Of a stretch of DNA of 49,299 bases, positions 4,206-34,854 are shown piece by piece (positions within the stretch are counted from its first letter, which is position 1; the number at the start of each line of letters is the position of its first letter). The translations under genes and the position numbers were made by a program. The DNA lies in NCBI GenBank assembly GCA_034433965.1, contig DAOTZZ010000053.1, positions 1 through 49,299 of the forward strand, given 5' to 3'. This stretch comes from Anaerolineae bacterium. GTDB taxonomy: Bacteria; Chloroflexota; Anaerolineae; Aggregatilineales; Aggregatilineaceae. The notes below the pieces were generated by a model. That model was not told the DNA's origin, did not search any database, and saw nothing but the letters and a program-made list of their open reading frames with translations.

Positions 4206-5726
4206 CTAGGCTTCTCCCTGAGGGTGTGTATGACCGTTGCGACGGCGGATGGTGCGGCGCTTGCCATTGCCATTGCCGTTGCCGTTGCTCTGCGACTCCG
4301 TGCCCAGAGCATCGCCCATGTGGAAGCGCCGCCATTTCTGCTCGTCCGCGTTCAGGCGGTGCTGAATGCCATCGCGCCGGTGAATCTCGTCGAAGCCTTC
4401 GGGCTTGATGGCGCTGATGCGCCCATCGAGCAGACCGGCCACGCCCGCCTGTCCCGGTTCCGGATGGTGCGCCGCCTGACGATCCAGGTGATCAATGGCG
4501 TGCGGGTCGTAGTCGAGCGGCTCGTCGTAGACGGTGATGTAGCCCTCGTAGTTGCGCAGCACGACCTTGCCCGGAGCCTGGCTGATCAGGTAGTTAGGCA
4601 TGACGGGGATTTTGCCGCCGCCGCCGGGCGCGTCAATCACATAGGTGGGCACGGCGTAGCCGCTGGTGTGCCCGCGCAGCCCTTCGATGATCTCGATACC
4701 CTTGGCGACCGTGGTGCGGAAGTGTCCCGCGCCCTTGACCAGGTCGCACTGATAGAGGTAGTAGGGGCGCACGCGGTTGCGCACCAGCTTGTGCACCAGC
4801 TCGCGCTGAATATTGACGCTGTCGTTGATGCCCGCCAGCAAGACGCTCTGGTTGCCCAGGGGGATGCCCGCGCGGGACAGTTTGTCCAGCGCCCGGCTGA
4901 GTTCGGGCGTGATCTCCTTGGGATGGTTGACGTGAATGTTCATCCACAAGGGGTGATAGCGCCCCAGCATCTCGGCGAAGTCGTCGGTGATGCGCTGCGG
5001 CAGGAAGACAGGCACGCGGCTGCCAATGCGGATCACCTCGATATGATCAATGGCGCGCAGGCTGGAGAGGATGTATTCCAGCACCTTGGGCGACAGGGTG
5101 AGCGGATCGCCGCCGCTGATCAGCACGTCGCGCACCTGCGGCGTGCGGCGCAGATAGTCGAGTTGCAGTTCGAACTCGGCGCGGCTGAAGTTCGCGCCGG
5201 GGTTGCCGACGATGCGGCTGCGCGTGCAGTAACGGCAGTAGCTGGCGCACTGCGTGGTGACCAGCATCAGCACGCGGTCGGGGTAACGGTGTACCAGGCC
5301 GGGCACCGGGCTGTGCCGGTCTTCGGCCAGGCTGTCTTCCATCATCCCCTCGAAAGCGGCCAGTTCACGCCCCAGCGGGATCACCTGGCGACGGATCGGG
5401 CAGTGCGGATCGTCGGGATCGATCAGGCTGGCGAAGTAGGGCGTGATATCTACCCGAAAGCGATTTTCGGCGGTCAGCCCTTCGATTTCTTCGGGGGTGA
5501 GGTGAATCAGTTGGGCCAGGTCTTCGACGCTGTTCAGGCGGTGCGCCAGTTGCCAGCGCCAGTCGCTCCACTGTTCGTCGGGGACATCGGCCCACAGCGC
5601 CGGTCGCGGGGTGACGGCCAGGACCGGCGCGTTAGCGGGGGGTTCTTCAGCAACGCGCTCCGTATCCGGGCCAGGAGGCTCCTCAAGCTCAGCGGTTTGG
5701 GCATTGTCCAGAGGTTTGATTTCCAT
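4206..5726 (-). CDS. kamA: lysine 2,3-aminomutase (radical SAM, PLP-dependent, KamA/AblA family)
   Basis: Radical-SAM triad CASYCRYC. PLP-Lys context DAPGGGGKIPVMPNY. Long collinear similarity to clostridial KamA as remembered (YYLYQCDL..GHFRT..KGIEIIEGLRGHTSGYAVPTYV). Confidence 0.9.
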   Translation of the reverse strand: MEIKPLDNAQTAELEEPPGPDTERVAEEPPANAPVLAVTPRPALWADVPDEQWSDWRWQLAHRLNSVEDLAQLIHLTPEEIEGLTAENRFRVDITPYFASLIDPDDPHCPIRRQVIPLGRELAAFEGMMEDSLAEDRHSPVPGLVHRYPDRVLMLVTTQCASYCRYCTRSRIVGNPGANFSRAEFELQLDYLRRTPQVRDVLISGGDPLTLSPKVLEYILSSLRAIDHIEVIRIGSRVPVFLPQRITDDFAEMLGRYHPLWMNIHVNHPKEITPELSRALDKLSRAGIPLGNQSVLLAGINDSVNIQRELVHKLVRNRVRPYYLYQCDLVKGAGHFRTTVAKGIEIIEGLRGHTSGYAVPTYVIDAPGGGGKIPVMPNYLISQAPGKVVLRNYEGYITVYDEPLDYDPHAIDHLDRQAAHHPEPGQAGVAGLLDGRISAIKPEGFDEIHRRDGIQHRLNADEQKWRRFHMGDALGTESQSNGNGNGNGKRRTIRRRNGHTHPQGEA

Positions 5727-26902: not shown

Positions 26903-27372
26903 AAGAGCATAATGTGTGCATCATAGCACATTGACGATTTCTGCGAGCACGGATGACGCACTCTGTGGCAGGGGAGGTGTGTCTTGCCGTCTCGCGGCTT
27001 AGAATGCCTGGTGGGGTCAGGGGGATAACCATATAGACGGTCTCCTTTAAAGCGGCCCAGAGGTGTTCTCTTTGAGCGCCTTCTTGTGCGATTGCCCCCT
27101 TGTAGCCTGGTCGCATCCCACAGGGCGTCTTCTGAACACTATGCGGGTGGTCTCTCTCTGCGTAGGGGAGGGGTGTTTTGACAGATCGAAGTCTGTCGTG
27201 ACGCTCGACACTCCAGAGTGTTGAGATAACGGGGTGTTTCATGTATGAGGGGGAAGAGAGCGCTCCATCGCACAGTCCGCTGACAAGGTTCCAACATTCA
27301 CCACGTTCGCGCCGCGTGGGCAAAGGCCACTGTCATCAGCCGGGGCGTGACAGGCTGGCAAGGAGTTATCTT

Positions 27373-29631
27373 ATGAAACGCATATCTCTTCTTGTAGCGA
27401 TCGTTATTGTGCTGGTTATGGTCGTTCCTGCGCCACAAGCAAGCCGGGCGCAGGTGGGCTACGAACAACTCGTGCGTCGGGCGCTGTCCGAACTGGACAC
27501 CAACTGCGCCAACCTGGAAGCGAACAGCGCCTGCTACGGCTTCGCCGAGGTGAGCGCCACGTTTTCGCAGGCGGTGCCTGGCGCAGCCCTGGACGAACCC
27601 GGTGACCGCGCTCCTCTGACAGGTTTGCTCAGCCTGCGCACCTCGCCGATCAACCTGACTACTGGCACCTGGGGCGTGGCCGTGATGAACGTACAGGCCA
27701 ACGTCCCCGCGGGCCTCACGGGCGAGTCGGCGGTCTTCCTGTTGCTGGGCGACGTGGAAGTGACCAATGCCGTAACCCCAGAGCAGGCGCTGGTGCCGCT
27801 GACGGTAGTCCCTGTGACGCTTACCAGAGTGACCAACGTCCTGCGTACGCCGGGCGCGAGCGGCCAGGTGTTGGGTAGCCTGTCCGCGGGCACGGTCCTG
27901 CAGGCCGACGGCATCAGCCCAGATGGAGTCTGGCTGCGCGTCATGTTCGACCGGCAGGTGGCCTGGGTGCCGCGTGCGAGCGTCAACAGCGACGCGCCGG
28001 TGGGCGGGTTGCCGGTGATCACGCGCGATAGCCTGACGCCTATGCAGGCATTCACCTTCCGCACGGGCGGGGGTATGCCGCCTTCCTTGGTGGTGCCGCC
28101 GGATGTGCTGGTGGTGCAGAGTCCGCGCGGCGTGCCGGTGGACATCGTCGCCAACGAGGTGCCTATCCGCGTAGATGGTGTGGTCTTTCTGCGCACCCTG
28201 CCCGATGGGCGCTTCCAGCTTCTGGCCAGCGACGGCGAAGCCTGGGCCTATCCGGACGCGCCCAATCGGGTGCGCGTGCAGGCGGGCACCGCGGTGATCC
28301 TGGGCGGCGGCACCTGGACGGGGTGGCGCACGCTCGAACAGCCAGAATGGGACGCCTTTGGCTCGCTGGAGCTGATCACCAATGTGGTGGTGTATCAGTT
28401 GGTGCTCCCCAATGTGATCAAGCCCTCCGGCATCGGCGTGCCGCCGGTGATCATCGAAATCCCTGGCGGGACGATCATCCCCATCCCGCCGCGTCCGCCG
28501 GTCTTCCCGGTGGTGCCGGTGACCTTCGGCGAGCCGGGCACCGAACTGGAGCGCCTGGCCTGGGAACCGATCGAGATTGGGTGTGGCGTGTGCCGCCCGC
28601 AGGACGCCTTCTATCATAGCGACAGCGACGGCGACTGGGACATCTATCGCCTGGCCGAGGACGGCCTTAACACCCTGGTCAACAATGTCACGCGGGGCAA
28701 CGGCAGCCAGGACGTGCAGCCGTCCTACTCCGCCGATGGCGAGTGGGTGGCCTTCACCACCAATCGCGACATCCTGGGCGGCTGGGAAATCTACCTGGCC
28801 CGCGTGGATGGCTCGCAGCAGGTCCGCCTGACCTACAACACCGCCAACGACGTGAACCCTGTCTGGGGGCCGGCGAACCTGATCGCCTGGGAGAGCAACC
28901 GCGACGGCAACTGGGAACTGTACATGGCTGACGTGTCCGGCGATGGCCTGCCCGTCCGCCTGACCGACGACGCGGCCAACGACATCAACCCGTTCTGGTT
29001 CCCGGATGGCGGCTGTGGTCAGCCGGAGGGCGCGCGCCTGGTCTTCCAGAGCGACCGCGACGGCGACTGGGAAATCTTCCTGCTGGATGTGATCTCCGGC
29101 GAACTGACCCAACTGACCGACAACGACACCGAAGACATCGTGCCGGTGCTCACGCGCGATGGCAGCACGCTGGCCTGGCTGCAACGCAATGACTTCGGCG
29201 TCTACGATCTGTGGGTGATGGATATGGGGACGCTGCAGGCGCGCCGTCTGGTAGACCTGGGCGTAGATGTGGCCGGGCACACTTTCGCGCCGGATGGGGC
29301 CTCGCTGGCCTTCTTCGCCAACGTGGACGGCGACGCGGATGTCTTCCTGGCCGACGTGGCGACTGGTCAGGTGAGACCTCTGACCACCAACACCTTCGAG
29401 GATCGCGCGCCGGGCTTCACCTGCGACGGGACGGCGGTGGTCTTCCACAGCGACGCTGCGGCCAGCGAAGAAAACCCCGGTCAGCGCGACCTGTTCTCGG
29501 TGCGGCTGGGCACGGTGCCCGGACCGGCTGTCCGCCTGACGCAGGATGTCCAGGCCGACGACCTGTACCCGATCGCCGACCCGCACGAGGAGATCAACAG
29601 CAAGGAAGGGCGGATGCCACCGCATCCCTAG
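27373..29631 (+). CDS. secreted protein with SH3b-like domain and C-terminal TolB-type (PD40) beta-propeller repeats
   Basis: ATG 27373 preceded by AGGAG. Signal peptide MKRISLLVAIVIVLVMVVPAPQASRA. Repeated units of the form DG.W.AF.S.RDG.WE.Y/L (for example NRDGNWELYMADV and DRDGDWEIFLLDV). Confidence 0.8.
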   Translation: MKRISLLVAIVIVLVMVVPAPQASRAQVGYEQLVRRALSELDTNCANLEANSACYGFAEVSATFSQAVPGAALDEPGDRAPLTGLLSLRTSPINLTTGTWGVAVMNVQANVPAGLTGESAVFLLLGDVEVTNAVTPEQALVPLTVVPVTLTRVTNVLRTPGASGQVLGSLSAGTVLQADGISPDGVWLRVMFDRQVAWVPRASVNSDAPVGGLPVITRDSLTPMQAFTFRTGGGMPPSLVVPPDVLVVQSPRGVPVDIVANEVPIRVDGVVFLRTLPDGRFQLLASDGEAWAYPDAPNRVRVQAGTAVILGGGTWTGWRTLEQPEWDAFGSLELITNVVVYQLVLPNVIKPSGIGVPPVIIEIPGGTIIPIPPRPPVFPVVPVTFGEPGTELERLAWEPIEIGCGVCRPQDAFYHSDSDGDWDIYRLAEDGLNTLVNNVTRGNGSQDVQPSYSADGEWVAFTTNRDILGGWEIYLARVDGSQQVRLTYNTANDVNPVWGPANLIAWESNRDGNWELYMADVSGDGLPVRLTDDAANDINPFWFPDGGCGQPEGARLVFQSDRDGDWEIFLLDVISGELTQLTDNDTEDIVPVLTRDGSTLAWLQRNDFGVYDLWVMDMGTLQARRLVDLGVDVAGHTFAPDGASLAFFANVDGDADVFLADVATGQVRPLTTNTFEDRAPGFTCDGTAVVFHSDAAASEENPGQRDLFSVRLGTVPGPAVRLTQDVQADDLYPIADPHEEINSKEGRMPPHP

Positions 29632-29653
29632 GTGAGCAGCTCTGAGAACGGCA

Positions 29654-29688
29654 CAGGGGCTTCCGAAATGGAGGCCCCTGTTTTGATT
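29654..29688 (+). terminator. intrinsic terminator after the TolB-like gene
   Basis: CAGGGGCTTCC-GAAAT-GGAGGCCCCTG is followed by TTTTGATT. It starts 23 nt after the stop. Confidence 0.75.
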
Positions 29689-29717
29689 CTGAGGTTCGTT
29701 GTCGGTTGTGGAGAGAG

Positions 29718-30028
29718 TGGGCCCGGCAGGATTCGAACCTGCGACCGACCGGTTATGCTTCCCAGCTACAGCTTTCGCTGCCCCTTTCGGGTTTGTGGGC
29801 TGGACTGTCTCTTCACCCCTCGTCTGAGGGGGCCTGCCGTACAGTCTCTACACCTTCCCCAGGTCATGGGGCTTGGCTCGGGATTACCATGTCTGCCGAC
29901 GAAGGCTTCCCCGAATTTGACAGGTTTTCCCCTGGAAATTACTCTCCAGAGCGCCCATCCTGCAACAAATCCTATCGAGAGAACCTGTTGCTTTGAGCCG
30001 GCTGCTCTAACCGCTGAGCTACGGGCCC
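29718..30028 (-). tRNA. tRNA with anticodon CAU (elongator type; acceptor stem resembles tRNA-Ile2/lysidine) interrupted by a group I intron
   Basis: Exon 1, 30028-29996: GGGCCCGTAGCTCAGCGGTTAGAGCAGCCGGCT. Exon 2, 29757-29718: CATAACCGGTCGGTCGCAGGTTCGAATCCTGCCGGGCCCA. Joined they form a 73-nt cloverleaf with a 7-bp acceptor, GCTC/GAGC D-arm, GCCGG/CCGGT anticodon stem, loop CTCATAA, 5-nt variable loop and GCAGG-TTCGAAT-CCTGC T-arm. No CCA is encoded. Confidence 0.85.
29758..29995 (-). ncRNA. group I intron (IC3-like bacterial tRNA intron), 238 nt, no ORF
   Basis: The intron follows U33 and ends in G. Core strings: CCTGTCAAATTCGGGGAAGCC, CCCGAGCCAAGCC, GAAGGTGTAGAGACTGTACGGCAGG, CCCCTCAGACGAGGGG, AAGAGACAGTCCAG, CCCGAAAGGG, CAGCGAAAGCTG. 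These match remembered Azoarcus tRNA-Ile and cyanobacterial tRNA-Leu introns. Pairings are consistent: P3 CCTG/CAGG, P4 TTCGGGG/TCCCGAG, P7 GACTGT/ACAGTC. Confidence 0.8.
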
Positions 30029-30068
30029 TGAACAGAGCGCCCAGCCGATCGCCGGGCGCTGCTGTGAG

Positions 30069-30139
30069 AGCGGGCAACGGGACTCGAACCCGTGACGACA
30101 GCTTGGAAGGCTGTAGTGTTACCGCTACACCATGCCCGC
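30069..30139 (-). tRNA. tRNA-Gly (anticodon UCC)
   Basis: Minus strand: GCGGGCATGGTGTAGCGGTAACACTACAGCCTTCCAAGCTGTCGTCACGGGTTCGAGTCCCGTTGCCCGCT. This is a 71-nt cloverleaf with anticodon loop CTTCCAA, close to E. coli tRNA-Gly(UCC) as remembered. Confidence 0.9.
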
Positions 30140-30158
30140 ATAGTGCTCGCTGACCATT

Positions 30159-30187
30159 ATCTTACCGGAAGGGCGGCGGTAGTGCAA
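30159..30187 (-). promoter_or_regulatory. candidate promoter of the tRNA-Gly/tRNA(CAU) operon (TTGCAC-17-TAAGAT)
   Basis: On the minus strand the -35 TTGCAC lies at 30187-30182 and the -10 TAAGAT at 30164-30159. The -10 ends 19 nt upstream of the tRNA-Gly 5' end. Confidence 0.5.
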
Positions 30188-30228
30188 GAGTCTGCTGTCT
30201 GCTCGACGCAAGGGTGCGTTCGGATTTG

Positions 30229-30429
30229 GGGGCAATGCTGAGGTCCGGACGTAAATGGTTGACCGGGACTGTGAAAGCCTCACCGATAGCCCCTCACCCT
30301 AAGTCCCTCTCCCTCAAGGTGAGAGGGATTTGTTCCCCTCTCCCCGCGACGCAGTTGCGTCGCAGTGGGAGAGGGGGCAGGGGGTGAGGGGCAGCCTTAG
30401 ATTTACGTCCGGGTCTCAGGGGCAATGCT
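30229..30429. mobile_element. MITE-like element: 179-bp body with terminal inverted repeats, flanked by an 11-bp perfect direct repeat
   Basis: The direct repeat GGGGCAATGCT occurs at 30229-30239 and 30419-30429. The body spans 30240-30418. Its ends are GAGGTCCGGACGTAAAT and ATTTACGTCCGGGTCTCA, giving 12 perfect bp of TIR (CCGGACGTAAAT). The interior carries CCCTCACCC / CTCTCCC palindromic modules. Confidence 0.65.
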
Positions 30430-30680
30430 CTTGCACCGCAGAAACGCCGAGAGCGCAGAGGAGAGGGACGAGAGAGCTCTGAGCTTTCTGCGAACTCCGT
30501 GGTAAGCCTGCCACCAAGTCCGAAATGTACCCGCCTGGCCATAGACACGCCCCTGTCTGAAGCAAGTTCACCGCGGAGATGCCGGGGCCGCAGGGGGAAA
30601 CGACACGGGGTCTCCGCGCTCTTCGCCTCTCCGCGGTTCGGTCTTTGCCTGTCAGATGCGCCCCGCGCCGTCCGCTGCCC

Positions 30681-31271
30681 TCACGAGAGCGCCAGGATGG
30701 TGATCACCAGGACGGCGAAGGGAAAGGACGAGGCGAACACCGCCGCGTACCAGCGGCTATCGTAGCGCAGGTGCATGAAGTAGAGCGCCACAAGCAATAC
30801 TTTGCTGGTCGAGAGCGCCACCAGCGGCCCGGTGACCGGGAAAGGCAGGTCGAATACGGTCAGCAGCACCTCAATGACTGTGATTACGGCCAGCGCGATC
30901 GCCACGCTCACATAGGTCAGGCGGTGCGAGTGCCCGTGCGCGCGCGCCCGCGGCCAGAAGTTGGCTCGCAGCGCAACCAGCAGCCCTGGCGTCGCGCGTT
31001 TGGCGCGGGCGGCGACCTGTAGTTCGTCCAGGGTGACGGCGTCAGCGCGCCACCGCGGGTGCACCAGCGGACGATCGGGCAGCAGGCGCAGCACCAGCCA
31101 CAAGGGGATCAGCGCGATCAGGCTGCCGATGCTCCCCAGGACAAGGCCCGCCAGCGTCGCCAGCCACTCGTTGATGCGTTTGCGCTCGGCGATCAGCGGC
31201 GTCAGCACGCCGCCCACGAACGACCCGGCGGCTGCCCACAGCGTCACCCACAACAGCGTGTCGGAATTCAT
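30681..31271 (-). CDS. cytochrome c oxidase subunit IV-like protein (COX4_pro-type C-terminus) with ~110-aa N-terminal membrane extension
   Basis: The C-terminal 80 aa (HSHRLTYVSVAIALAVITVIEVLLT...SKVLLVALYFMHLRYD) fit bacterial subunit IV. The gene is last in the cta operon. GGAG SD upstream of ATG 31271. Confidence 0.7.
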   Translation of the reverse strand: MNSDTLLWVTLWAAAGSFVGGVLTPLIAERKRINEWLATLAGLVLGSIGSLIALIPLWLVLRLLPDRPLVHPRWRADAVTLDELQVAARAKRATPGLLVALRANFWPRARAHGHSHRLTYVSVAIALAVITVIEVLLTVFDLPFPVTGPLVALSTSKVLLVALYFMHLRYDSRWYAAVFASSFPFAVLVITILALS

Positions 31272-31290
31272 AATTGCTCCGTCCCCCCGC

Positions 31291-32115
31291 TCACTCGATC
31301 AGATAGATGATCGTGAACAGCACGATCCACACCACGTCCACGAAGTGCCAGTACAGCCCGAACAGCTCGACCCCCATGTTGTCGTTGGCCGAGTAGTGTC
31401 CGCGCCGGGCGCGCAGCAACAGAATGACCAGCCAGCCGACGCCGATCAACACGTGCAGCCCGTGAAAGCCGGTGGTGGCGAAGAAGGCCGTGCCGAAGAT
31501 ATTGCTGGCCTTGATGCCCTCGTGCATCAGTTCGTACCATTCGAACGCCTGAATGCCCAGGAACATCGCCCCGAAGAAGATCGTCAGCCCCATCCAGTTG
31601 AAGAACACCCGCCGGTCGTCCGACTGAATGGCTTCCAGGCCCATCACCACGGCGAAGCTGCTGACGATGAGCACCGAGGTGCCCAGCGTCGCCAGGGGCA
31701 GGCTGAGCACTTCGTGCGCCGCGCGGAACACTTCCGGATGGTCTACCTTGAAGCGGAGGAAGGTGCCGATCAGCGACCCGAAGAACAGCACTTCCGACGC
31801 CAGGAAGGCCCACATCGCCAGCTTGCGGTGATCCAGCTCGGCGAAGAAACGCCCGTGCAGATCGATCTCCGGAAAGCTGGCCATGCGCAGCAGCCCGAAG
31901 AGGGTGACAGGTACTCCCAGCACCAGCAGCGGCGGCGCGATCAGCCCGATGACCGCCAGCGTGGCTCCAACGCCCACGATGAAGGGGGCCAGGCTGGGCG
32001 GCGGCAGGTGCACCTCTTCGGGTTCGGCGGGGCCCGCCGGAGCGACTTCCGGGCAGGGCACCGCCTCGATCATTTCTTCGGCATCGCGCGGAGCGAGCAG
32101 TTGCGCGTCAGACAT
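31291..32115 (-). CDS. ctaE: cytochrome c oxidase subunit III
   Basis: Typical C-terminus: ELFGLYWHFVDVVWIVLFTIIYL. Multiple TM helices. Position directly after subunit I. Confidence 0.9.
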   Translation of the reverse strand: MSDAQLLAPRDAEEMIEAVPCPEVAPAGPAEPEEVHLPPPSLAPFIVGVGATLAVIGLIAPPLLVLGVPVTLFGLLRMASFPEIDLHGRFFAELDHRKLAMWAFLASEVLFFGSLIGTFLRFKVDHPEVFRAAHEVLSLPLATLGTSVLIVSSFAVVMGLEAIQSDDRRVFFNWMGLTIFFGAMFLGIQAFEWYELMHEGIKASNIFGTAFFATTGFHGLHVLIGVGWLVILLLRARRGHYSANDNMGVELFGLYWHFVDVVWIVLFTIIYLIE

Positions 32116-32118
32116 GCG

Positions 32119-33753
32119 TTATTCCCCCTCTGGAGTCAGGCCCAGGCGCAGATCGCGGGCCGGACGACGGCTGTACACCACCGGTATCCGCGCGAAGTTG
32201 TACTCTGGCGGCGGTGAGGTCGTCGTCCATTCCAGCGTGTCGCCTTCCCAGGGATCGTTCCCCGCCGGTTGATGATGGCGGGCGCTGCGAATCATATTGT
32301 AGACCAGGATCAGCACCGAGATGCCCATGATGATCCCGCCCACCGTCGAAAGCTGATTGAGCGTCGTCCAGCCGCGATCTTCCGGGTAGTCGTAGACGCG
32401 GCGCGGCATGCCCATCAACCCCAGGATGTGCATGGGGAAGTAGGTGATGTGGAAGCCAATATACAGCGTCCAGAACTGCAGCTTGCCCAGCCGCTCGTTC
32501 AGCCGATAGCCGAACATCTTCGGCCACCAGTAATACAGTCCGGCGAAGATGCCAAAGCCGCCTCCGCCGAACACGGCATAGTGCAGGTGCGCCACCAGCC
32601 ACATCGAGTCCGCGACCACTTCGTCAATGGGCAGCACCGACTGCATGACGCCGGTGATGCCGCCAATGAGGAACGTCGTCAGGAAGCCGATGGCGTAGAG
32701 CATGGGCGTATCGAAGCGCAGCGAGCCGCCGATCATGGTGAAGACCCAGTTGAACATCTTCACACCGGTGGGGACGGCAATGAGCATGGTAGTGAGCACG
32801 AAGAAGATTTCCAGCGCAGGCGGCAGTCCAATGGTGTACATGTGGTGCGCCCATGTCCAGAAACCCTGGAAGCCGATCAGGATCGTCGAGATGACCATGA
32901 CCTTATAGCCGAAGATCGGCTTGCGCGAGAAGACCGGGATCACCTCGGAAATGATGCCCATGGCCGGCAGAACGATGATGTAGACCGCCGGATGCGAGTA
33001 GAACCAGAACAGATGCTGCCATAGCACGGCATCCCCGCCCGCCGCCGGGTTGAAAAATTGCGTGCCCAGGTTGCGGTCGAGCAGCAGCAGCAAACCGTTG
33101 ACCGTCAGCACGGGCGTGGCCGCGACGATCATGAAGGCCATGACCAGCACGGTCCAGGGGAAGAGCGGCATCTTCATCAGCGTCATGCCTGGCGCGCGCA
33201 GCTTGAGAATGGTCACGATGAAGTTGAACGCGCCGATCAGTGATGACGTGCCCACCAACGCTACCGCGATCAGCCACAGGTCGGTGCCGAAGCCCGGTGA
33301 ATAGTCTTTGCCCGCCAGCGGCACGTACGATGTCCAGCCGTTGGCCGCCGCGCCCCCCTCCACCAGGAAGCCCCCATACATGGTCAGGCCGCCGAAGAGC
33401 AGCAACCAATAGCTGAGGGCGTTCAGGCGCGGGAAGGCCATGTCGCGCGCGCCGATCATCAGTGGCACGGCGTAGTTGGCCAGCCCGGCCAGCATGGGGA
33501 TGACGAACAGGAAGATCATCGTCGAGCCGTGGATGGAGAAAATCTGGTTGTATTCCTGCGCCGAGACGACCTGCCCGCCGGGCAGCGCCAGCTCTGCACG
33601 CAGAATCTGCGCCAGAAAGACGCCGATCACAAAGAAGGTGAAGGTCGTCAGCACGTACATGATGCCGATCTTCTTGTGATCGACAGTGGTCAGCCAAGCC
33701 AGCAGACCGCGCGGCTGGTGCGCTACGGGATAGGGGGATGCAATCGTGGCCAT
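32119..33753 (-). CDS. ctaD: cytochrome c oxidase subunit I (haem-copper oxidase, A-type)
   Basis: Highly conserved strings: [48 protein letters not shown]. Start set at ATG 33753 (GGGAGA SD) rather than GTG 33771. Confidence 0.93.
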
Positions 33754-33789
33754 TGTCAATTTCTCTCCCACTCAAACGGACTCGCGCGC

Positions 33790-34854
33790 TTAATGCGACA
33801 GCAGGTAGGCGATGATGTCGGCCAGGCCCTGCGCGTTCAGTTTCTCGCCGTAGTCGGCGGGCATGATCTGACAGTTGAAGCCTTCGGCCTGCACGGCGCA
33901 CGGCACCAGGATCGATTCGCGCAGGTAGCTTTCGGGTGTGTAGCCGTCCGCGGCGCGGGCATCGCGGGCCATGGCAGCCAGCGACGGGCCAACGCCAGGC
34001 TGTTCGCCATGACAACTGACGCAGCCCAGTTCGGCGAAGTGCTGCTCACCGCGCGCCACATCGCCCGCGGGTAGCGGCGAAGTCAGGTCGGTCCCAATGG
34101 GCACAAAACGCCCCAAAGACGCCATTTGTTCGGCCAACCAGGCATCGAATGCCGCTGGTTCCAGCACCTCTACGTCTATGAGCATGTCGTAGTGCAGCGT
34201 ACCGCAGTATTCGGCGCAGTTGCCGGTATAAAGACCCGTCTTGGGCACGTTGAGCCACATGGTGTTGGTGTAGCCGGGAATGGCGTCCACTTTGCCCGCC
34301 AGATCGGGCACCCAAAAACTGTGCTGTACATCGGTGGAGGTGATTTCCAGCAGCACGTTGCGGTTGGCAGGGATGGTCAGCTTGCGTGTGGTGATCACCC
34401 CCGTCTCTTCACCCGCGCCCAGGAAATATTCGTAGTCCCAGTTGAACATGTAACCGGTCACGTGCACGGTCAGGTCGGGGGTGGTATCCCCGTTGTCGGC
34501 CTGAACCTGATAGCGAGTGGTCATAAAGCGAGCAGTCAGGATGAAGATGACGGCGATGATCAGCAGCGACAACACCGTCCAGGTGATCTCCAGGGGACGG
34601 TGTCCCTCGATCTGCTCTGGCATCTCATCGTGTCGCCGACGACGGTAACGAATGATGGCATAGAGGATCAATCCCTCTACCAACAGGAAGATGGGCACAG
34701 AAATCCAGAACAAGACGTTGAACAGGTCGTTGATGTCGGTGCGGGACGCGCCGCCGGAGACCGGGCCGTGCGCCCAGACCCTGGCAGGGAGCGCCAGCAA
34801 CATCAGCGCCAGGGCTGCCAGCCCCGGAACATAAGTGAAGACGGATCGTTTCAT
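33790..34854 (-). CDS. ctaC: cytochrome c oxidase subunit II with fused C-terminal cytochrome c domain (caa3 type)
   Basis: CuA motif HSFWVP...CAEYCGTLHYDM. C-terminal haem motif CVSCHG. Signal/TM helices at the N-terminus. Confidence 0.92.
   Translation of the reverse strand: MKRSVFTYVPGLAALALMLLALPARVWAHGPVSGGASRTDINDLFNVLFWISVPIFLLVEGLILYAIIRYRRRRHDEMPEQIEGHRPLEITWTVLSLLIIAVIFILTARFMTTRYQVQADNGDTTPDLTVHVTGYMFNWDYEYFLGAGEETGVITTRKLTIPANRNVLLEITSTDVQHSFWVPDLAGKVDAIPGYTNTMWLNVPKTGLYTGNCAEYCGTLHYDMLIDVEVLEPAAFDAWLAEQMASLGRFVPIGTDLTSPLPAGDVARGEQHFAELGCVSCHGEQPGVGPSLAAMARDARAADGYTPESYLRESILVPCAVQAEGFNCQIMPADYGEKLNAQGLADIIAYLLSH

Follow-up and report, generated by a model that had tools for sequence, protein, structure and literature searches.

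A predicted self-splicing group I intron between U33 and C34 of a tRNA-Ile2(CAU) gene from an Anaerolineae bacterium

The window analyzed here, a stretch of 49,299 nucleotides from an Anaerolineae bacterium, carries on its minus strand the two halves of a tRNA gene, which are separated by 238 nucleotides (Table 1). When the halves are joined, ARAGORN returns a perfect 73-nt cloverleaf without mismatch and with the anticodon CAT, exactly as the original prediction had stated. The CCA end is not encoded, and CTCTCT comes after the 3′-exon. A tRNA-Gly(UCC) gene precedes the split gene, and the two are probably co-transcribed. The candidate promoter upstream of tRNA-Gly was picked by eye; a scan for sigma-70-type promoters yielded none above threshold, and this TTGCAC/TAAGAT site falls below it. 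At the other end, a 13-bp hairpin separates the tRNA operon (minus strand) from the convergent TolB/Tricorn-like gene (27241-29631, plus strand), lying between their ends, and it probably represents a shared bidirectional terminator.

The tRNA locus is located downstream of a cox operon (COX2, COX1, COX3, COX4_pro), and the G+C content of the window is 60-68 %. COX4 and the tRNA operon are 500 nt apart, and the intervening sequence comprises G/C-rich imperfect inverted repeats (30290-30400, minus strand), e.g., GGGGAGAGGGG ... CCCTCTC ... GAGGGAGAGGGA, and a second terminator-like site is found among these repeats at 30310-30328. In addition, positions 28291-34576 of the window are 100 % identical to contig Ga0212093_1009044 of the JGI metagenome 3300022554, and ENA contig ERZ781397 likewise encodes the COX3 protein.

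Table 1. Features of the tRNA operon and of the intron in the window (↓, exon-intron junction).
Feature	Position	Strand	Basis
tRNA-Gly(UCC), 39 nt upstream of tRNA-Ile2	30068..30139	-	ARAGORN; RF00005, 68.5 bits
Candidate promoter TTGCAC-17 nt-TAAGAT, upstream of tRNA-Gly	30159..30187	-	By eye; weak, 8/12 match
G+C-rich hairpin, 13 bp, terminator candidate	29653..29681	.	Scored terminator-like on the plus strand
tRNA-Ile2(CAU) 5′-exon (33 nt), nt 1-33, last nt U33; GGGCCCGTAGCTCAGCGGTTAGAGCAGCCGGCT	29996..30028	-	ARAGORN: 73-nt cloverleaf with the 3′-exon
tRNA-Ile2(CAU) 3′-exon (40 nt), nt 34-73, CAU anticodon to discriminator A73; CATAACCGGTCGGTCGCAGGTTCGAATCCTGCCGGGCCCA	29718..29757	-	ARAGORN and sequence
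Group I (IC3-like) intron, 238 nt, without ORF	29758..29995	-	RF00028, homologues, covariation, MFE z = -3.0
P1 5′-strand GCU↓CA, 3 exon nt and 2 intron nt	29994..29998	-	Helix 97.8 % paired
Internal guide sequence UGGGC (P1 3′-strand)	29953..29957	-	
P1-loop hairpin, 8 bp, GCAACAGG ... UUUGUUGC	29962..29991	-	
P2, 9-bp helix with GUAA (GNRA) tetraloop cap	29930..29951	-	Relatives have GAAA/GUAA at this loop
P3 5′-strand CCUGUC	29919..29924	-	99.1 % paired; compensatory changes in 4/6 pairs
P3 3′-strand GGCAGG	29833..29838	-	Covariation
P4 (UCGGGG/UCCCGA) around J4/5 and P5-P5a (GGCA loop)	29878..29914	-	P4 100 % paired
P6 (GCC/GGU) and P6a (CCCCA/UGGGG)	29852..29877	-	P6 100 %, P6a 95.5 % paired
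J6/7 and P7 5′-strand GUAG-A-GACUG	29842..29851	-	P7 100 % paired
J8/7 (UGAAGAGA) and P7 3′-strand CAGUCC	29802..29815	-	Alignment, covariation
P8 hairpin CCCCUC-AGAC-GAGGGG	29816..29831	-	Fold; poorly aligned across homologues by MAFFT
P9.0 (CCCA/UGGG) around P9 (CCC-GAAA-GGG) and P9a (CAGC-GAAA-GCUG)	29761..29799	-	P9a 100 % paired

A search of the entire window against Rfam yielded two matches, the tRNA-Gly gene and the group I intron family RF00028. The latter spans positions 29977-29778 (minus strand) and the full model (1-253) with 59.0 bits, above the gathering threshold of 50, and an E-value of 1.6e-12. Thus, the insert is indeed a group I intron, as had been predicted, and no chance match. 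The U.G pair at the 5′-splice site, the terminal omega-G and a covarying P3-P8 core with the P3/P7 pseudoknot likewise mark it as a member of this class, and all six core strings quoted in the original prediction are present. Three ORFs overlap the tRNA and the intron, and none has a Pfam match, which led us to reject a protein-coding alternative for the locus. In line with the expectation that an ORF-based annotation would overlook the gene, neither these ORFs nor ARAGORN in default mode reveal it; the latter reports only tRNA-Gly in the window. The absence of Pfam matches among the overlapping ORFs holds for an intron-encoded homing endonuclease as well, and the intron is devoid of an ORF, since 238 nucleotides leave no room for one.

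A full P1-P9 fold including P7 can be drawn for the intron. In P1, U33 (29996) forms a wobble pair with the G at 29955, and a U.G pair is present at this position in 18 of 18 aligned sequences. The helix comprises 5 bp, compared to 6-7 bp in most relatives, and P5 contains a U-U mismatch. Two readings of the guide by eye, as GGUU in the P1-loop hairpin or as AGCUGG near the 3′-end, were discarded when the published seeds and covariation gave UGGGC. The sequence alone provides a candidate P10 of 3 bp at most, in which AUG (29958-29956) would pair with CAU of the 3′-exon. The P1-loop hairpin occupies the position where homologues hold a homing-endonuclease ORF. Helices P3, P7 and P8 pair as originally proposed, whereas P4 is better drawn with 6 bp (UCGGGG/UCCCGA) and the seventh G assigned to P6. 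By analogy to the structures of the Azoarcus and Tetrahymena introns, the bulged A of P7 together with a conserved G-C pair constitutes the predicted guanosine-binding site. When the intron alone was folded with RNAfold, a minimum free energy (MFE) of -92.5 kcal/mol (z = -3.0) was obtained, and MFE folding by itself recovers P2, P4, P5a, P6a, P7, P8, P9 and P9a.

Homologous introns were collected by scanning genomes with a pattern for the 3′-junction (P9a hairpin, omega-G and CATAA) and subsequently with nhmmer, a procedure that provides a sample and not a census. At least 22 homologues were obtained (22-23 true introns among the 119 genome loci listed; the genome of the window itself is not among the matches), including the cyanobacterial members L119 and L046. 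The nhmmer E-values against these 22 introns range from 1e-17 to 1e-28, and all 22 reside at position 33/34 of tRNA(CAU) genes. Their guide follows the exon: GGCU↓CA occurs with UGGGCY and GACU↓UAA with UUGGGUU, and in two Chloroflexota relatives the exon/intron sequence CGGCU↓C pairs with the guide GGGCUG.

For the covariation analysis, 18 ORF-less introns including that of the window, representing at least eight phyla, were aligned with MAFFT, the window sequence was annotated with the P1-P9 structure, P7 being treated as a pseudoknot, and the pairs were counted. Paired cells amount to 88.0 %, versus 75.1 % in shuffled alignments and 29-50 % when the 3′-partners were slid by 1-3 columns, and 39 pairs are changed on both sides, versus a shuffled mean of 25.3. 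The observed values were reached by none of 500 shuffles on any of the five measures. Compensatory exchanges between G-C and A-U were found in P1 and between A-U and G-C in P9a (seven sequences each), and P4 shows a change from G-C to U-A in three sequences. Compensatory changes likewise occur in P3, P6 and P7; in P6a all five pairs are affected, and the fifth pair of P7 occurs in all four Watson-Crick types across the alignment. GUAGAGAC in J6/7-P7 is invariant (18/18), as is GUCC in P7. The lower pairing figures of the P1 loop, P2, P8 and P9 in this alignment are attributable to misregister by MAFFT in helices of variable length rather than to the fold. Moreover, at each core column that is invariant among the 18 aligned sequences, the window's own among them, the window copy has the family residue.

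At the loci L116, L112, L008 and L011, which come from MAGs of Chloroflexia, Nitrospiria, Acidobacteriota and Nitrospirae, introns of 514-662 nucleotides interrupt tRNA-fMet genes. Their P1 loop contains an ORF of approximately 130-190 codons, of which the copy in L011 looks truncated. The product of the L116 ORF matches PDB entry 2OST ('putative endonuclease') with an E-value of 1.2e-63, which we take to be I-Ssp6803I of the Synechocystis tRNA-fMet intron. The presence of these ORFs indicates that the endonuclease-bearing form of the intron has spread well beyond the cyanobacteria.

Because the intron starts with CAA and the 3′-exon with CAU, there are four formally possible placements of the 238-nt insert. 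Only with an insertion between nucleotides 33 and 34 of the anticodon loop CUCAUAA, with ...GGCU before the intron and CAUAACC after it, is the intron both preceded by a U and terminated by a G. The proposal that the insert follows U33 and terminates with G is thereby borne out, the first intron nucleotide being C29995 and omega-G residing at 29758 (minus strand). ARAGORN in its intron-tolerant mode, a check suggested along with the original prediction, detects the split gene but sets the intron at 36/37 and labels it tRNA-Leu(caa) i(37,238), as CAA comes after U33 and CAU before AACCGG. A boundary at 36/37, which would correspond to that of the Azoarcus tRNA-Ile intron (Ile2.5Ug) and produce a tRNA-Leu with the anticodon CAA, would leave the intron with a U instead of a G at its end and the 5′-exon with an A instead of a U. 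Moreover, the variable loop of the tRNA comprises 5 nucleotides, in contrast to the long arm of bacterial tRNA-Leu, the covariation of P1 and the invariant U.G pair set the splice after U33 in 18 of 18 homologues, and ARAGORN miscalls homologues in the same way. We consider the probability of a 36/37 boundary to be negligible. The U(-1)/omega-G rule, the guide/exon covariation in P1 and the invariant U.G pair support a splice site predicted between U33 and C34. The same 36/37 'tRNA-Leu(caa)' call was returned by ARAGORN for 29718-30028 of the window, L017 and L149; these calls are a systematic mis-annotation of introns whose first bases mimic the anticodon.

The nomenclature and seed alignment of Williams 2020 (bioRxiv 10.1101/2020.01.27.920355) number the sites of the anticodon loop 0-7, site 2 being located after U33, name the classical classes Leu.3Ug, Arg.5Ug, fMet.2Ug and Ile2.5Ug, to which 17 new ones were added, and include the seeds Sba135.Met.2Ug and Gba28.Ile2.2Ug. 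In these seeds, introns at site 2 form P1 from exon GCU and intron CA with UGGGC (Williams 2020), and P1 of the window has the same arrangement (GCU↓CA, 29998-29994; UGGGC, 29957-29953). The insertion at 33/34 in CUCAUAA and the homology to published members thus identify the window intron as a site-2Ug tRNA(CAU) intron. The original prediction had correctly pointed out that the Azoarcus intron sits elsewhere, at 36/37, but the implied novelty of the site was overstated. Position 33/34 is already known, being classical for tRNA-fMet (fMet.2Ug) and catalogued for elongator tRNA-Met and tRNA-Ile2; for the classical fMet intron, the position is taken from Williams's nomenclature and from the cyanobacterial loci of this analysis.

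We then turn to the host, which the original prediction had named as tRNA-Ile2 on account of C4-G69 and C5-G68. Both pairs are present, together with G3-C70, C11-G24 and U12-A23. G3 or C70 marks tRNA-Ile(CAT), whereas Met and fMet usually have C3-G70, and G3/A3-C70/T70 excludes both; Ile(CAT) often has C4-G69 and C5-G68 and lacks A11-T24/G12-C23, and C11-G24/U12-A23 exclude fMet (Silva 2006, PMC1635315). The best full-length (73/73 nt) E. coli matches of the window tRNA are PGAP-annotated tRNA-Ile genes (81-82 % identity), and the anticodon of the retrieved match is CAT, i.e., it is of the ileX type. These marks and the ileX-type match underlie our designation of the tRNA as tRNA-Ile2.

The same group I intron could alternatively reside in a gene for elongator tRNA-Met, as the class Met.2Ug is listed for this site in Williams's seed alignment, and tRNA-Met(cat) is the label that ARAGORN gives to the product of splicing. 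However, this label reflects only the reading of the anticodon, and G3-C70 is a negative discriminator for both Met and fMet (Silva 2006). The identity marks are imperfect, and Met and Ile(CAT) are hard to part in some phyla (Silva 2006); nevertheless, the window tRNA has the C4-G69 and C5-G68 of a typical Ile(CAT), and the E. coli genes that match it best over the full length are ileX-type tRNA-Ile and not metT. The hosts of the 22 homologues comprise 12 initiator tRNA-fMet genes (CGCGGGG..., C1xA72 mismatch, GGG/CCC anticodon stem) and 10 window-like genes, which start with GG(G/C)CC... and have G27.U43. This G27.U43 pair is common to E. coli ileX and all 10 Ile2-type hosts and is found in none of the 12 fMet-type hosts. 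An elongator tRNA-Met host appears improbable to us, and the sequence marks as well as the nearest annotated tRNA support tRNA-Ile2 as the likely host.

When compared to six published seeds, the window intron is 80 % identical to fMet.2Ug (seed Tpc1.fMet.2Ug, the highest value), 79 % to Leu.3Ug (seed Ncf2), 77 % to Arg.5Ug, 74 % to Met.2Ug, 72 % to the Azoarcus Ile2.5Ug intron and 67 % to Gba28.Ile2.2Ug, the lowest of the six tested. The kinship of its core with the Azoarcus and cyanobacterial tRNA introns claimed in the original prediction was therefore confirmed (IC3-like, 72-80 % identity to published seeds). The cyanobacterial fMet.2Ug introns have the same insertion point, after U33 and before C34 of CU↓CAUAA, the same P1 design (GCU↓CA with UGGGC) with a hairpin or an ORF in the P1 loop, and a P9.0/P9/P9a 3′-end nearly identical to that of the window. 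However, their host is the initiator tRNA (C1xA72, GGG/CCC anticodon stem) and not tRNA-Ile2, and some members carry the homing endonuclease I-Ssp6803I, whereas the window copy has no ORF. A group I intron in a cyanobacterial tRNA-fMet(CAU) gene was reportedly described by Biniszkiewicz et al. in 1994. The cyanobacterial and plastid tRNA-Leu(UAA) introns (Leu.3Ug) likewise have an IC3 core, with the GCGAAAGC hairpin as P9a and P9.0 arranged as in the window, but are inserted after U34 of tRNA-Leu and hence have a different guide sequence. Given the seed identities, the window intron looks like the cyanobacterial fMet/Leu IC3 type placed in a tRNA-Ile2 gene.

The intron in tRNA-Ile(CAU) of Azoarcus sp. 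BH72 (Ile2.5Ug), the model IC3 ribozyme, interrupts the same tRNA species and has the same IC3-type core strings (AAAUUCGG.GAA, CCGAGCCAAG, GAAGGUGUAGAGACU and AGUCCAG; the 72 % identity refers to aligned columns). It differs in that it follows U36 (36/37) with a guide GUG pairing to CAU, and it has a shorter P1 without P1-loop hairpin and another P9 region. As represented in the seed alignment, Gba28.Ile2.2Ug agrees with the window in the host tRNA type, the site, U(-1)/omega-G and P1 (GGCU↓CA ... UGGGCC). In contrast, its core is clearly another one, e.g., UAUAUCGGUAAAA versus AAAUUCGGGGAAG in the window, and so is its P9. Because of this different core and the 67 % identity to the one seed, the window intron appears to represent another lineage within the nominal Ile2.2Ug class.

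We regard it as highly probable that the locus is a two-gene tRNA operon with a self-splicing, 238-nt IC3 group I intron at U33/C34 of tRNA-Ile2. For the splicing chemistry, its order relative to TilS and the co-transcription with tRNA-Gly, we infer the following course of events. tRNA-Gly(UCC) and pre-tRNA-Ile2 would be contained in one transcript, in which P1, formed by GCU↓CA and UGGGC, would hold U33 in the U.G wobble, and the P3-P9 core would fold around the guanosine-binding P7. Free guanosine would attack after U33, whereupon CAU of the 3′-exon may displace intron CA on the guide AUG, giving the 3-bp P10. Omega-G (29758) would subsequently occupy the P7 site, and the 3′-OH of U33 would attack after omega-G, joining U33 to C34 and restoring the anticodon loop CUCAUAA. 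Since the splice junction abuts C34, TilS would act only after splicing; it would turn C34 into lysidine, and the tRNA could then be charged by IleRS and read AUA.

Judged from its sequence, the intron is well preserved and looks intact. The short P1 (5 bp) and the mismatch in P5 could be signs of a decayed, non-splicing relic, i.e., of a split tRNA pseudogene whose work is done by a second intact tRNA-Ile2 gene elsewhere; in the same vein, nothing maintains the intron by mobility, as it has no homing endonuclease. However, a neutral relic would be expected to gather disruptive changes, whereas both exons are flawless, U(-1), the wobble G and omega-G are intact, all core helices pair, and the family residue is retained at all alignment-invariant core columns. 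Moreover, compensatory changes have preserved the fold in relatives with approximately 80 % identity, a sign that the structure is under purifying selection. We judge a relic very unlikely and favor a splicing-competent intron. As it lacks an endonuclease gene, the window intron cannot home, and it was presumably inherited vertically within its lineage.

The split gene is missed by default tRNA finders and mislabelled as tRNA-Leu(CAA) by ARAGORN in intron mode; consequently, the genome would appear to be without its essential AUA decoder. The sporadic distribution of bacterial tRNA introns is extended by a Chloroflexota lineage, and the intron provides one more data point on the spread of introns among tRNA(CAU) genes; the knowledge of group I introns themselves is unchanged by it. 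With 238 nucleotides (206 nucleotides in L149), it is a compact natural ribozyme with a splice site abutting C34, the target of TilS.

Among the matches listed, the nearest introns reside in the tRNA-Ile2 genes of a Chloroflexia MAG (L108), an Anaerolineae MAG (L028) and a metagenome contig (L149), the exons of which are nearly identical to those of the window. Together with the window intron they form a clade with 79-81 % core identity and 70 % bootstrap support. The labels of these nearest MAGs make a Chloroflexota host likely for the window intron as well. The 206-nt intron of L149 scores 60.2 bits with RF00028, and the gene order on this contig is tRNA-Pro, tRNA-Gly(UCC) and split tRNA-Ile2, the tRNA-Gly(UCC) neighbor being common to the window. 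In addition, metagenomes were scanned with the 5′-exon through the base after U33, which catches alleles with and without the intron. Approximately 110 of the 120 contigs sampled run straight into CATAA (76 as CATAACCGG, approximately 35 as close variants), which indicates that the group I intron is rare among alleles of this tRNA type; one contig (L149) has a group I intron and two contain a group II intron. Such rarity is expected for a sporadically distributed element.

A bootstrapped neighbor-joining analysis of 170 columns separated the Ile2-hosted introns cleanly from the fMet-hosted ones in only 6 % of the replicates. This result is a hint that introns have passed between the two CAU tRNA genes more than once, 170 columns being too few to settle the matter. 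A more specific scenario, which we put forward only tentatively and hold to be rather doubtful, is that the Chloroflexota tRNA-Ile2 introns (window, L108, L028 and L149) stand apart from those of Proteobacteria, Planctomycetota and Acidobacteriota, each having arisen independently from tRNA-fMet introns. If true, the separate Ile2 lineages would be a natural record of repeated intron hops between paralogous tRNAs that share CU↓CAUAA. Plausible routes for such hops are reverse splicing or cleavage of a look-alike site by I-Ssp6803I.

The two contigs with a group II intron, L176 (Ga0209810_1000272, 4369-4993, plus strand) and L195 (WNGC01103976.1, from 2263), contain a tRNA-Ile2-type gene that is split after A38. 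The insert of approximately 552 nucleotides has no ORF and starts with AAAAGTGCG, and a match to RF00029 (group II intron domain V/VI) with 52-54 bits lies immediately ahead of the 3′-half of the tRNA. On L176, ARAGORN reports tRNA-Met(cat) i(39,552). A group II intron within the anticodon arm of a bacterial tRNA seems unusual. On another contig, L137 (Ga0209254_10022825), a tRNA-Ile2-type 5′-half through CATAATCGG leads into unrelated sequence, and a 3′-half is absent from its vicinity; this half gene may be a truncated tRNA copy at an integration site.
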